This document shows positions 16,473 through 62,797 of a stretch of 64,000 nt of DNA, in pieces. This DNA comes from Escherichia phage 308Ecol101PP. The notes beneath the pieces are model-generated. The model was not told where the DNA came from, searched no databases, and was given only the letters and a program-made list of their open reading frames with translations. How positions within the stretch are numbered: the stretch's first letter is position 1; every line of letters begins with the position of its first letter. The stretch lies in the sequence record OR062945.1; one strand, written 5' to 3'. The position numbers and the translations under genes were made by a program.

Positions 16473-16491
16473 TGGGACTTCGGTCCCATTT
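16473..16491 (+). terminator. hairpin with UUCG tetraloop after regA (short U tract)
   Basis: TGGGAC-TTCG-GTCCCA followed by TTT, then TATAAT at 16496. Confidence 0.4.
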
Positions 16492-44149: not shown

Positions 44150-44572
44150 ATGGCTTTTAAAGGTTTTGAAGTTGGTAAGAAATATCGTATTATCAAAGGA
44201 CAGGAAGATAATTTCTTGAGAATTCTTAATACGACTGGTAAACGTCTTAACACTACTCTGCATACAGTTTTATTATCAAGAGATTTTATCGTAGAAGAGA
44301 TGATTGGTTACGGTGTTTCAATGATTGCCGCTGAAACCGATGGACCTGGACGTACAATCATTAGTATGCAAGGTGATATTCTGATTTATGGTGCAGAATT
44401 TAAATTCTTTGAAGAAGTTCCGGAACCAGATACAACTGTCGATTTCAAAAAAGGCTCTATAGAATTTGTTGATGGTTCGGTGATCGTATCAGGCGATGTG
44501 GTCATTACAGTTAAAAGTGAACAAGGGCGTTTGGCTGCAATTGATGCACTTCAGAAAATTAAATTTAAATAA
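44150..44572 (+). CDS. hypothetical protein
   Basis: 140-aa ORF followed by a strong terminator. Confidence 0.5.
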   Translation: MAFKGFEVGKKYRIIKGQEDNFLRILNTTGKRLNTTLHTVLLSRDFIVEEMIGYGVSMIAAETDGPGRTIISMQGDILIYGAEFKFFEEVPEPDTTVDFKKGSIEFVDGSVIVSGDVVITVKSEQGRLAAIDALQKIKFK

Positions 44573-44590
44573 GGGCTTCGGCCCTTTTTG
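44573..44590 (+). terminator. rho-independent terminator (UUCG tetraloop)
   Basis: GGGC-TTCG-GCCC followed by T5. Confidence 0.6.
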
Positions 44591-51077: not shown

Positions 51078-51100
51078 GGGGACTTCGGTCCCCTTTTTTT
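51078..51100 (+). terminator. rho-independent terminator (UUCG tetraloop) after rIIB
   Basis: GGGGAC-TTCG-GTCCCC followed by T7. Confidence 0.7.
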
Positions 51101-53403: not shown

Positions 53404-53540
53404 TTAAGAAAATCTTAGCAGGAGCCTTCGGGCTCTTGTTTTTGCTTACGGTTCTGTACTACGGTGTGATGTTTGGGCTAATCCAAGTAGTGCTTTTCAT
53501 TTCAGATGTTATAATGGTTATTCGTTCATTAATATGGTGA
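53400..53540 (+). CDS. hypothetical small membrane protein (46 aa, not in ORF track)
   Basis: Hand-translated, hydrophobic; ATGA overlap with previous. Confidence 0.35.
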   Translation: MIKKILAGAFGLLFLLTVLYYGVMFGLIQVVLFISDVIMVIRSLIW

Positions 53541-54946: not shown

Positions 54947-54967
54947 GGGAGCTTCGGCTCCCTTTTG
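54947..54967 (+). terminator. rho-independent terminator (UUCG tetraloop) after gene 52
   Basis: GGGAGC-TTCG-GCTCCC followed by TTTTG. Confidence 0.6.
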
Positions 54968-57551: not shown

Positions 57552-57824
57552 ATGAATAAAGACATTGAAATCGTACGTGAAATTATTACTATTGCTTCTA
57601 TTTTGATTAAATTCTCTAGGGAAGATATTGTTGAAGACCGAGCAAGTTTCATCGGATTCTTGAATGAGATTGGAATTAAAAAAGATGGTCGGCAGCTAAA
57701 TCAGAATTCTTTTAGAAAACTAATTACAAATTTAACTGCCGAAGAAAAGAAAACACTGATTAGTGAATTCAATGAAGGTTTTGAAAATATTTATCGTCAT
57801 TTAGCGATGTATTCTAACAACTAA
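57552..57824 (+). CDS. asiA: anti-sigma70 factor AsiA
   Basis: 90 aa, MNKDIEIVREIITIASILIKFSREDIVE...; matches T4 AsiA from memory. Confidence 0.85.
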   Translation: MNKDIEIVREIITIASILIKFSREDIVEDRASFIGFLNEIGIKKDGRQLNQNSFRKLITNLTAEEKKTLISEFNEGFENIYRHLAMYSNN

Positions 57825-58493: not shown

Positions 58494-59045
58494 TTACTTA
58501 AAGATATTTATAATCGCTTTGATAATAGATTTGTTTTCAAGGTCAGGGAATTTAGGGAATTCGCCGCCAAGATGTTCATGTTTTTCTAAAAGGGCAAAGA
58601 ATTTTTTGAGCTCTTTAAATTTTCGTTTTTCTTCTCTATTAGCAACCTCTGCGTCAATAAGAGAACTTAAAACACTGAATAATTTATAGAGTTCATGAAT
58701 TTTCTTATCACGTTGAACTACGCGTTTATATGCTTCATCTTCCTTCCACCCGTCGTCGGTCCAAATGTCAAATTCACCGGGTTCTTCTGTAGTAACATTT
58801 TGAAGAGCACCTGGAGTGTCAATAACAATTTTTTGCTTATCATAAGTCCATACTGTTTTTCCACGATGGTCTTCAACATATACCCATTCTTGTTCGCGTT
58901 CATCAAATACAACAGCATAGCCTTCTTTAGGGTCTAAAGGTTTTTTTGGTGTCGAATGAGCCGGAAATCCTACGCCTTTTAATGGTTTATAATTTTCTTC
59001 TTTGTAAAATTCTTTAGTGTCAAAATAATAGTGATAGAGTTTCAT
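58494..59045 (-). CDS. 38: gp38 tail fibre assembly chaperone (T4 type)
   Basis: 183 aa, MKLYHYYFDTKEFYKEENYKP...; same length as T4 gp38. Confidence 0.8.
   Translation of the reverse strand: MKLYHYYFDTKEFYKEENYKPLKGVGFPAHSTPKKPLDPKEGYAVVFDEREQEWVYVEDHRGKTVWTYDKQKIVIDTPGALQNVTTEEPGEFDIWTDDGWKEDEAYKRVVQRDKKIHELYKLFSVLSSLIDAEVANREEKRKFKELKKFFALLEKHEHLGGEFPKFPDLENKSIIKAIINIFK
58505..58512 (-). promoter_or_regulatory. T4-type late promoter (TATAAATA on minus strand) for t, inside the 3' end of gene 38
   Basis: Plus-strand TATTTATA 21 nt upstream of the t start. Confidence 0.5.
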
Positions 59046-59077
59046 ATTATAAAAAAGGGACAGAAGTCCCTTCTCCT
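59046..59077 (-). promoter_or_regulatory. structured translation-initiation region of gene 38 (hairpin between Shine-Dalgarno and AUG)
   Basis: Minus strand reads AAGGAGAA-GGGAC-TTCT-GTCCC-TTTTTTATAAT-ATG; the hairpin sits between the Shine-Dalgarno sequence and the start codon. Confidence 0.5.
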
Positions 59078-62000
59078 TATGCTAAACGAACGATATAGTT
59101 AAAAGCAACGTTTTTAACTGTGTTTTCTGTATTTCCTGTGGCATTTACAGTTATTGTATGACCATGAGAACCAATCGCTACCGAATGAGAGTGGGCACCA
59201 ATACCTACAGTATGTGTATGGGCACCAATACCAACGGTGTGGGCATGGTTACCTGTGGTACTTGTAGTTCCTGACCAACTATGAGTGTGGGCACCATCTG
59301 AAGAAGTTTTGGCCATATTCGACGCTGCAGTAGCACCGCTCACGGATCCAGTGATTTTAGCGTTGCCGTTTGGTCCCGCACTATTGTATCCATCATAGAA
59401 TATGCTAGTGGGTACGCCGCCTTGTATCTGAGGGCCTGAACGCGCGTGTTGGTGCGCACCAGCGGAACCAGTATTACCACTCACTGTATGGTTATGATTA
59501 CCAGTGGTATTGCTGGTCTTAGTACCATAGTCGAAGCTACTTGTCGTCTTAGTACCATAATCAAAACTTGACGTGGTCTTAGTACCCAAATCTGTGCTTG
59601 ATGCACTTGCACTATGGCTATGTGACTTAACACCGTCTGCTTCTGTACTTAGTACAGCACGCCCGGATGGTTTACCCTTGATAGTTTGACCACGCATATC
59701 AGGCAGAGCGCCGGAAGGATACACCGCAGCTAACTTAGGATACAAGCCAGCATCAAATGTTTGACCTTCCATTATGGCATAACCTTCAGGAGGTGTATCA
59801 GTAGGCCAAGGAATCGGAGCACCAATTGGATAACTTGAGACAATATCTGTCTTAAGGTTATTTATTGTGGTATTCAAGTTAGCAAAATTACCAGAACCAC
59901 CAGTAATATTACCATCAGTACCGAATTGAGCATTACCAACTTTTAATGGTTTAGTAATATCGACAGAATCAGAGTTTAATGCAATACCATGTGAATATGT
60001 GTAGCTGTGCATACGAACGACGTTGCCGCCATCGCCAATACCTAAATACCATTTCGGAACATCTGCTTTACGTCCTTGAATGAAGTTAGAAGACTCTTGT
60101 GTTGGAGCATTTATTCTAATAGCATCTGATGCCATATTTACTGTTATGCGTTGACCAGCCGTAGTACCAGTTGTATCTACTTTAAATCTACCACCGCCGA
60201 TATCTACTACATGGTCCATAGAAACTTGGCCATCGCCTAAATTGATATAAAACGGGCGAAGATTACTTATTCCACCACTTTCACCGGCATCTTTAGGAGT
60301 CGGAATAATGTACAGACTTGTTTCTGAACGTCGGAAAATAGCGCCGTATTCAGCGTTCCAAATTCTTAATGCGTCGGCTGTTCCACCGAATTTAGCTTGG
60401 CCGTTTACAGATAATCCATTATTTGCAACTAAACTTGATTCGCTAACAATAGAACCGGCCGATATAATACCACCACCCACACGTAAAGCGCCGGAAATTC
60501 TGAATTGAAGAGCACCGACAGTTTCAGAACCCGTCGGTGCTAAACGTTGAGAATAAAAATGATAGCCCTGGCCATCATACAATTCAAATACGGTTTCACG
60601 ATTACCGGCGGTGGAGTCGAATGCATTACCCCAGGCTTTCATAGTCAGATAACTTTTATTTTGTCCTGAACGGGTCCCGGCGTTCCACTGGATAGTTCTC
60701 GAGCCATCAACTTTGCTAGGGGCGCCAAATTTAAGGCCTTCGGTATTATTAGAACTATTTAAAAATAATTCGTTGTCTAATTTAACAGGTTGGATAGAAG
60801 AAATAGTGCCGTCAGCATAAAACTGTACATTATTAGAGCCAGTTACCAATTTCAAAATACCCGGATTAACTTCCATGCCTTCTTGAGTATTAATATTAGT
60901 TTTGCCTTTACCACGGAAATAGTGGTTCATTTTTCCGCCAGAATTATATCCAATATGGGTTTGACCATCTCCAGCAGAGTTTTCATCAGCCTGAGTTTGG
61001 ACTGATAAAAGAGCGGCGTTGGTTCCAGGCATAATCCATGTGGTTCCTTGGTCTTCTGAACGTCCAAATAAACCTTTGCGAGTACTACGGAAACTGTCAG
61101 GAGTAATAGAAGCAACAGAATTCCCTGAACCAACTAAATCATAAACACCGGTTTTTTTGTATGATAGCCCCGTCCCGTTATCGCCTAGAGCTAAATAAAC
61201 ACCGAATCCTAAAGCGGCACCATTACCATAGTCGCTTGACGGGTATCCTGCAGTCACAGTACCGATGGCCAGGCTATTGCGGATAATCATTCTGCCGTCA
61301 TTACGAATACCATATAATTTAAATGATGGTGTATTACCAGACCACCAAGAAACTTCATCAGCCTGGCCTGTTTGTGCAGTAACAATTTCATGATACATTG
61401 TACTACCGGATTTAGCTCGCACTTTACGAAGATAGTTTACACCATTCGTTTCGCCGGTGCCTGGATATACATAATTAACTAATGAATCTGTATCATATAC
61501 ACCAAAGGCTTTGCCACCGTGGATAACTGTATCAGCTGCAATGCGTTTAGTTACTAACGAATCTGATGCTAAAATACGGTTGGCTTGAAATTCACCGCCG
61601 TTTATAGAACGGAAATAGAATTCGCTATTAACGGTGCTTCCTGTTCCTTGTCTAACTCTAAGACGTATTTCACCATCAGTTGTAGTTTGAGGACGAGCAT
61701 ATATAACGCCTCGTTCAGTGCCATCAGCATTTTCAAACCATAAATGGGCATTTGATGTTTCACCAGGTGAAGCTCTTGTATAAAACGAACCTTGCAATGC
61801 TCTAAAAGTTTGAGCTGAAATACTAGTACCAGCGGTAATCTGGCCACTTGTGGAAAAATTTCCAAAATTGTTTATTGGCCCATTAACACGTAAAGTTCCA
61901 TTAATAGTAACGTTGCCGTCAACCTGGCCACCTTTAGCAAAGCCTAGGCTAATAATATTACCGAGGTCATCTTTAGTAAAAAGAGTTCGATCTTTTAAGT

Positions 62001-62094
62001 TTATCGCTAATTCGCCTTCGGCTAATTGTGCTGCAGTAGGATTAACTCCTGCCACTTTGCTTCTTTTAAATTGTATCTGTTTTAATGTAGCCAT
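59077..62094 (-). CDS. 37: long tail fibre distal subunit gp37 (receptor-binding)
   Basis: 1005 aa; C-terminal His-x-His repeats ([24 protein letters not shown]) and Gly/Ser/Thr-rich repeats. Confidence 0.85.
59150..59245 (-). repeat. tandem DNA repeats encoding the HxH motifs of the gp37 tip
   Basis: Repeated GGGCACCAATACC...GTGTG units readable in the plus-strand sequence. Confidence 0.5.
59515..59605 (-). repeat. three imperfect 30-33-nt tandem repeats inside gene 37
   Basis: GTCTTAGTACCATA... repeated three times, encoding [11 protein letters not shown] three times. Confidence 0.6.
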
Positions 62095-62102
62095 AAGTCC
62101 TC

Positions 62103-62765
62103 TTAATAATAGCCGAAATCTTGAACAGAATCTTTAATTACAATCTGGTCGAAACGAGGAACATGATTAGCCTCAGACGCCGGATTCTGTGAGAAAAAGT
62201 TTGGTGCTGTTAAAGTACCAATCATGGTATCGCCAGAACGCAATACACGGGAATTTGTGTTATCCGTAACAATATTTATTCGTCCATCAACATAATCTTT
62301 TCGTGTGAGATCATTTGCTGCAACCGGAGCAGTAGCGTTAGAACGGACAGGACCAATTGCATAAAAACCGCCCTTAGTGCTGATATCACCGGTACGAGCG
62401 TTAATAACAACAGTTCGGTCTGCTGAACCTTGTGATGACTTAAAACCAATACCATTCCACGAAACGATGTCAATATTTGCCATATCAAAAGTAGCTGCAT
62501 CACCGTTACCTGGATAAACACCACACTGTTGACTACTACCTACAGTAGGAACATGTACGCCTCCATTAAATCGAACAGTTGCAGCGTAAGTACCACCATT
62601 AGCTTTAGAAACGAAATCGTTATCAGCAGCTTGTGGTTTATTATATTCTGAATAGAGTTTAAACGTTTTATACAGGACGTCATCACCTGCTGGCATTAAA
62701 GGGAAATTACCTTGATGCCATATAACGGCACCGCCAGTTGTACTACCAGCTTTTAAATCGGCCAT
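62103..62765 (-). CDS. 36: long tail fibre distal connector gp36
   Basis: 220 aa (T4 gp36 221 aa), directly upstream of gene 37. Confidence 0.8.
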
Positions 62766-62789: not shown

Positions 62790-62797
62790 TATTTATA
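62790..62797 (-). promoter_or_regulatory. T4-type late promoter (TATAAATA on minus strand) upstream of gene 36
   Basis: Plus-strand TATTTATA about 25 nt upstream of the gene 36 start. Confidence 0.5.

Follow-up and report, generated by a model that had tools for sequence, protein, structure and literature searches.

The closest described systems are the split translation initiation regions of bacteriophage T4. In T4 gene 38, the intervening RNA structure reduces the spacing between the Shine-Dalgarno (SD) sequence and the AUG from 22 nt to 5 nt, and in T4 gene 25 an intervening structure reduces it from 27 nt to 11 nt (review PMC3014915, which refers to Nivinskas et al. 1999 and to Malys and Nivinskas 2009 for split regions). 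Mutations that destabilise the structure lower initiation in the T4 38/25 class; the sentence of the review may concern mainly gene 25 (PMC3014915).

We inspected the junction of genes 37 and 38 in a stretch of 64,000 nt from Escherichia phage 308Ecol101PP (OR062945.1), hereafter the window. As the junction is the same 37/38 locus as in T4, and the T4 case is described in PMC3014915, the window element is an orthologous allele of an element that was already described. It is real and conserved, and it is not new.

The gene 37/38 junction and its T4 counterpart

The minus-strand gene order 36-37-38-t, obtained from the ORF list and Pfam matches, is that of the T-even tail-fibre cluster. Gene 36 (62765-62103, Pfam Phage_T4_gp36) is followed by gene 37 (59077..62094), the orthologue of T4 gene 37, which encodes the long tail fibre distal subunit of 1005 aa with the Pfam domains Collar, gp37_trimer and Gp34_trimer. 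Gene 38 (58494..59045) encodes a T4-type tail fibre assembly chaperone of 183 aa, and the holin gene t (58484-57825, Pfam Phage_holin_T) comes next. Gene t and a convergent asiA-like ORF on the plus strand (57552-57824) abut at 57824/57825 with no spacer and no terminator-like element, as in T4.

Over its full length, the protein encoded by gene 38 shares 68% identity with T4 gp38. Since this identity begins at residue 1 and the protein matches Pfam Caudo_TAP, the AUG at 59045-59043 is the correct start codon. An upstream in-frame start in the window was rejected, because the codon in the hairpin loop is CUG (59063-59061) and not AUG.

On the minus strand, the junction reads GCA-TAA-GGAGAA-GGGAC-TTCT-GTCCC-TTTTTT-ATAAT-ATG. 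The gene 37 stop codon TAA (59079-59077) overlaps the SD sequence UAAGGAG (59073..59079), of which GGAG occupies 59076-59073. Downstream of it lies the core hairpin GGGAC-UUCU-GUCCC (59057..59070), a 5-bp stem with a tetraloop that was assigned from its fold energy, its covariation and the RNAalifold consensus. Together with an A-U and an R-U closing pair, the core makes up a 7-bp helix that is conserved in the alignment (59055..59072) and places 18 looped-out nucleotides between the SD and the spacer. The U6 tract (59051..59056) forms a terminator-like tail and could also supply the 3' strand of a lower stem, pairing with GGAGAA (59076-59071) in the predicted minimum free energy (MFE) structure. 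The A/U spacer AUAAU (59046..59050) abuts the start codon on its 5' side. The earlier note on this DNA had located the element correctly to within one base (59046-59077 spans AGGAGAA...ATAAT, and its string begins at 59078). The long SD-AUG gap that it described is present as well, although the distance from GGAG to AUG (59076-59073 to 59045-59043) is 27 nt and not about 30 nt.

In T4, the same junction reads TAAGGAGA-GGGGC-TTCG-GCCC(C)-TTCTAAAT-ATG. Both phages share the gene 37 stop, the TAAGGAG that overlaps it, a 5-bp GC stem with a tetraloop, and the AUG of a T4-type gp38. They differ in the spacing, which is 22 nt in T4 (23 nt in resequenced T4) and 27 nt in the window phage, in stem pair 4 (G-C in T4, a compensated A-U in the window), and in the loop (UUCG versus UUCU). 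The tail is UUCUAAAU in T4, whereas the U6-AUAAU of the window phage is terminator-like and permits an 11-bp stem that buries the SD. The effective spacing of 9-13 nt in the window is likewise longer than that of T4. T4 gene 25 shares with gene 38 of the window a hairpin between SD and AUG and the linear distance of 27 nt, but it is a different, non-homologous gene with a different sequence and is absent from the window.

The T4 RefSeq record NC_000866.4 (3130-3143 of the extracted locus) reads GGGGCTTCGGCCC, in which the 3' arm is one C short compared with OL964735 and X55191 (resequenced T4, TuIb) and with all other relatives (GGGGCTTCGGCCCC). The missing C may be a compression error at the CUUCGG hairpin. 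When it is restored to the 3' arm, the classic T4 spacing of 22 nt becomes 23 nt.

A distant Shine-Dalgarno sequence without alternatives

The SD sequence of gene 38 is strong, as UAAGGAG forms a duplex of 7 bp with the anti-SD at the 3' end of 16S rRNA at -7.8 kcal/mol, or -9.0 kcal/mol for UAAGGAGAA. No complementarity to the anti-SD was found in the 22 nt preceding the gene 38 AUG. Among the 94 crude ORFs in the window, 74 have within 22 nt an SD whose duplex reaches -4 kcal/mol or better (modal spacing, 5 nt), and the SD sequences of the neighbouring genes t, 36, 37 and 35 lie 2-5 nt from the start. The 20 window ORFs that lack a canonical SD did not include another convincing split initiation region. 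The gene 38 SD thus lies more than 15 nt upstream of its AUG with none at canonical spacing, which is characteristic of a split region of the T4 gene 38 type. TAAGGAG is invariant in 13/13 alleles of the junction, and the gene 37 stop forms part of the SD in all of them.

Gene 38 probably possesses a split translation initiation region orthologous to that of T4, in which the SD lies far upstream and the hairpin shortens the effective distance to the AUG. A different explanation would be initiation that does not depend on the SD at all, through the A/U-rich leader UUUUUUAUAAU and ribosomal protein S1, the distant GGAG being irrelevant. The leader adjoining the AUG is indeed purely A/U. However, GGAG never changes although it lies in non-coding sequence, whereas the A/U tail differs between alleles in both length and sequence, and we consider SD-independent initiation highly improbable.

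Conservation of the hairpin in T-even phages

The 1-kb region around the junction matches more than 200 deposited T-even genomes of Mosigvirus, Tequatrovirus, Gaprivervirus and Dhakavirus. Junction alleles were taken from 25 records of the phage collection and from 14 loci on metagenomic or viral contigs, which yielded 12-13 distinct alleles. Across 13 alleles, the 5-bp core pairs in every cell (100%), compared with 32-75% when the 3' partner was slid by 1-3 columns. Core pair 4 covaries, being G-C in six alleles, A-U in five, C-G in one (LF82-41) and G.U in one (Mizar). The RNAalifold consensus helix has 9 bp, and the closing pairs 5-22 and 6-21 (alignment A2) can form in 12/12 alleles. Judged by the full core pairing against the slid controls and by the covarying pair, the hairpin fold is selected and not a product of chance. 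A stable hairpin conserved with compensatory changes in the SD-AUG interval is a further mark of the T4 gene 38 type, and it is present here.

Outside the stem, the alleles are more diverse. The loop is UUCG in most of them, UUCU in the window phage and many Mosigvirus records, and UUAU or UUAG elsewhere. The tails range from UUCUAAAU in T4 up to UUUUUUAUAAU in the window phage, with a T-run of 4-6 among close relatives, where T4 has UUCU. The exact 55-nt junction with the UUCU loop and U6 had no 100% match in the phage collection, and it is one base off common alleles. Searches of IMG/VR by protein and by a degenerate pattern of the gene 37 3' end, and of metagenomes by a degenerate pattern of the gene 38 5' end (2, 6 and 4 loci, respectively), provided no extra stem variants. 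An Rfam scan of 58900-59250 gave only chance-level matches far below gathering scores, and no curated family covers the element.

Several relatives show unusual junctions. The junction of slur14 (LN881736.1; 371-410 of the extracted locus) is a mosaic of a T4-type 5' side and stem (GGAGA-GGGGC..GCCCC) and a window-type tail and gene 38 start (TTTTTATAAT-ATGAAACTC), and the hairpin may serve as a recombination boundary between the gene 37 and gene 38 modules. The Salmonella phage Lv5cm (MZ150757.1; 90-205 of the extracted locus) has about 76 nt of its 37/38 junction duplicated in tandem. A normal SD-hairpin-ATG arrangement is followed by 17 gene 38 codons and TAG, and then by a second hairpin copy, TAGGGCTTCGGCCCC-TTCTAAAT-ATG, which has no GGAG and stands before the full-length gene 38, just past the stop of the 18-codon remnant. 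The duplication represents either a naturally occurring variant that lacks the SD or an artefact of assembly. In four IMG/VR contigs, a different gene lies downstream of a gp37-like protein with the same C-terminal NYIVRLA. About 30 nt past the gp37-like stop, these contigs contain TAACAGAAAGGAGAGGATTGCATGAGAACGTTAATCCTCTC, which includes a perfect 9-bp inverted repeat (GAGAGGATT/AATCCTCTC) whose stem holds the SD and whose loop holds the ATG.

Predicted fold and accessibility of the SD

The stable hairpin that the earlier note had placed between SD and AUG is borne out by the calculated folds as well as by the conserved pairing. The predicted folding energy is -7.7 kcal/mol for the core hairpin by itself and -14.9 kcal/mol for the 38-nt segment, the latter with z = -3.96 and with only 1 of 200 shuffles equally stable. 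In the predicted MFE structure, the stem is lengthened to 11 bp by pairing of GGAGAA with UUUUUU, and the predicted unpaired probabilities of the four GGAG bases are 0.27, 0.06, 0.03 and 0.01. As the predicted MFE buries GGAG, the hairpin cannot be said to lie neatly between SD and AUG. This predicted sequestration of GGAG, with probabilities of being unpaired of 0.01-0.27, is a point against the split region, as is an effective spacing longer than that of T4.

Holding the SD open is predicted to cost 4.0 kcal/mol, against -7.8 to -9.0 kcal/mol gained in the SD:anti-SD duplex, and the 7-bp hairpin persists when the SD is open. The effective spacing is 9 nt after subtraction of the conserved 7-bp helix and 13 nt after subtraction of the core alone, by the simple subtraction that is the convention of the T4 literature and that ignores helix geometry. 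The proposal that the hairpin restores normal spacing therefore stands in so far as the distance is shortened, to 9 or 13 nt, and has to be qualified in so far as the MFE buries the SD. The lower stem between the SD and the U-tract shows no compensatory or double changes, and its outer pairs are restricted to window-type alleles. In the covariation test of this lower stem, purine-U pairs can always form, and the slid control at -1 was about equal (0.237 versus 0.230). Because any purine pairs with U, selection on the lower stem is unproven.

A probable course of initiation can be drawn from these features. Gene 38 would be read from a polycistronic late mRNA starting at the gene 36 late promoter. 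Its sole ribosome-binding sequence is UAAGGAG, located 27 nt from the AUG and in overlap with the stop codon of gene 37. The 30S subunit would pair with this strong SD and displace the weak G.U/A-U lower stem, an opening that we infer. The GC-rich tetraloop hairpin would stay folded and loop out 14-18 nt. This would bring the AUG to about 9-13 nt-equivalents from the SD, a distance that a ribosome can use.

Gene 38 might instead be translated mainly by termination-reinitiation, in which ribosomes that finish gene 37 at the UAA would open the lower stem, be retained by the SD, and begin again at the AUG, 31 nt further on. The location of the stop codon within UAAGGAG in 13/13 alleles would fit such a mechanism, as would an SD that is predicted to be paired unless opened. 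Lv5cm also provides a case in which the full-length gene 38 follows a stop and a hairpin without GGAG, and this copy hints that the SD may be dispensable if an upstream ORF terminates nearby, provided that the sequence is correct. However, the Lv5cm duplication is possibly an assembly artefact, the T4 literature describes direct bridging of SD and AUG (PMC3014915), and sequence alone cannot separate reinitiation from de novo initiation. We regard reinitiation as the main route to be unlikely. The split initiation region is supported by orthology, by covariation and by the literature on T4, and the hairpin is probably needed for translation in this phage.

Relation to the intercistronic hairpins of T-even phages

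Short hairpins of the C(UUCG)G type occur in the intercistronic regions of T-even phages, as reportedly described by Tuerk et al. in 1988. The window element shares with them the short GC stem, the UUCG-type tetraloop and the location in an intercistronic gap, and most relatives have UUCG at 37/38. The window allele has UUCU, hence lacks the special UUCG loop, and its SD lies upstream and not downstream of the hairpin.

The phage T2 allows a direct comparison. Its 37/38 junction (AP018813.1; 4050-4086 of the extracted locus) reads TAA-AAGAGGGC-TTCG-GCCCTCT-AAGGA-TTTTTA-ATG. A CUUCGG hairpin directly follows the gene 37 stop, as in the window phage. In T2, however, the hairpin precedes the SD (AAGGA, then 6 nt, then AUG), so that the spacing is conventional, and the T2 gene 38 is of the adhesin type and unrelated. 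As T2 has the hairpin after the gene 37 stop despite an unrelated gene 38, the hairpin may have a function that belongs to the end of gene 37, such as mRNA stability or termination, and the start of the T4-type gene 38 may have been adapted to it with an SD on the far side.

The hairpin may be thought of as a generic C(UUCG)G-type intercistronic hairpin, a barrier to 3'-exonucleases or mRNA stabiliser at the gene 37 end, whose position between SD and AUG is only tolerated. Apart from T2 with its downstream SD, this explanation draws on the abundance of such hairpins: the window contains 11 perfect 5-bp GC-rich tetraloop hairpins, compared with 1.27 +/- 1.08 in Markov simulations, and the identical GGGAC-TTCG-GTCCC (GGGACTTCGGTCCC) occurs at 16474 and 51079. 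It leaves unexplained the absence of a normally spaced SD and the invariant upstream GGAG, and the structure enhances initiation according to PMC3014915. We think it improbable that the hairpin is nothing but a generic element. Among the GC-rich hairpins examined in the window and at T2 37/38, the SD was 3' of the hairpin wherever a downstream start could be identified, with gene 38 as the exception. This exceptional placement suggests a specific solution and not a generic layout. Examples of GC-rich hairpins on the plus strand of the window are 16474-16487, 44572-44585, 51079-51092, 53422-53435 and 54948-54961; they have mostly UUCG loops, and several have U-rich tails.

Resemblance to a transcription terminator

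With Rho-independent terminators, the window element shares a GC-rich stem-loop, a U-run that follows directly, and upstream purines with which this U-run can pair. It differs from them in that it lies inside a transcription unit, has a short stem, and has a U-run that is not conserved at orthologous junctions. GGGAC-UUCU-GUCCC followed by UUUUUU is a GC-rich stem-loop with a U-run of at least 5. The window terminator consensus scan did not list the element, presumably as the scan extends the stem into the U-run. A rough score of the d'Aubenton-Carafa type was +20.6 for the window allele versus -9.3 for the T4 type, by a 1990 formula that is uncalibrated to these energies. The score was positive in the U5-U6 alleles and negative in the T4-type alleles and T2. 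At orthologous sites, the terminator-like form is not conserved, since T4, VR7, C6 and SP18 have the tails UUCUAAAU, UUCUGAAU or UUUUAAAU and negative rough scores. A search of the literature for transcript-end or terminator data at T4 37/38 or for this phage returned nothing usable.

Promoters were located by a motif scan of the window. The exact late promoter consensus TATAAATA occurs on the minus strand only at 62797-62790 and 58512-58505. The first site (62790..62797) is upstream of gene 36 and is the nearest upstream consensus late promoter for the gene 38 mRNA, and the second (58505..58512) lies inside the 3' end of gene 38 and serves the holin gene t, not gene 38. No exact TATAAATA specific to gene 38 was found within gene 37 or from 62790 to 59045, and one-mismatch matches were at or below chance. 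By this motif test, the element is not at the end of a transcription unit that is followed by a promoter. As gene 38 lacks a consensus late promoter that would serve it alone and needs read-through, any termination at 37/38 would be partial. The 35/36 junction (62822-62740, minus strand) is a terminator-like hairpin followed by a promoter: a 7-bp GGGAGAC-TTCG-GTCTCCC with ATTTTTG is followed by TATAAATA (62797-62790), AAGGAG, 6 nt and the ATG at 62765.

Of the resemblance to a terminator for gene 37 transcripts, which the earlier note had also pointed out, the GC stem and U6 hold for the window allele. The U-tail is absent from T4, the role is not conserved, and such a terminator could not be efficient. 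It is conceivable, and somewhat less probable than not in our estimate, that the hairpin and U6 act also as a partial intrinsic terminator or attenuator of the 36-37 late transcript, which would be compatible with the split region. Some transcripts would then end past gene 37, plausibly yielding less of the chaperone gp38 than of the structural gp37. Such attenuation would be in line with the GC stem directly followed by UUUUUUAU, with the difference in rough score between the window allele and the T4 type, with the U4-U6 tail in about 100 deposited phages, and with the records of NBG1, G53, WFbE185, G2469 and MM02, whose annotations of the homologous site as a terminator are predictions. On the other side, the stem core has just five G-C/A-U pairs, and the U-tract is not conserved while stem and SD are. 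With no consensus late promoter for gene 38 between 62790 and 59045, the attenuator would have to be inefficient, and the similar, longer hairpin at 35/36 has a new late promoter right behind it, whereas that at 37/38 has none. The gene 37 stop moreover lies 6 nt upstream of the stem, and a ribosome standing there would be expected to cover the 5' arm.

These considerations can be combined for this phage and about 100 relatives with U5-U6. One hairpin capable of 11 bp could be at once an attenuating terminator, an SD-sequestering stem and a spacing adaptor, with the ribosome at the gene 37 stop blocking termination and unmasking the SD. We offer this as a speculation that is probably wrong. 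If it were true, production of the chaperone gp38 would be linked mechanically to the ongoing translation of gp37, its client.

Implications for T-even genomes

The principle of a hairpin that splits SD and AUG is already textbook T4 biology, and the main import of the gene 38 split region is for annotation. Gene callers that need a normally spaced SD can misplace the gene 38 start. In E. coli O157 typing phage 3 (KP869101.1; 371-410 of the extracted locus), the loop is TTAT, which creates an in-frame ATG in the hairpin loop 9 nt from GGAG. The GenBank gp38 CDS of KP869101.1 begins at this loop ATG and is 6 residues longer; the loop AUG is confined to the O157 typing phages. In Mizar (PV714129.1; 389-391 of the extracted locus), a 3-nt ribosome_binding_site is annotated inside the 3' arm of the hairpin, which illustrates how automatic annotation mishandles the start of gene 38. 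Terminator predictors, in turn, mark the site as the end of an operon although gene 38 relies on read-through.

The natural allele series at this junction is a possible ready mutant panel for the study of how ribosomes accommodate hairpins between SD and AUG. It comprises G-C, A-U, C-G and G.U at the covarying pair, the loops UUCG, UUCU, UUAU and UUAG, and a range of tails between UUCU and U6.
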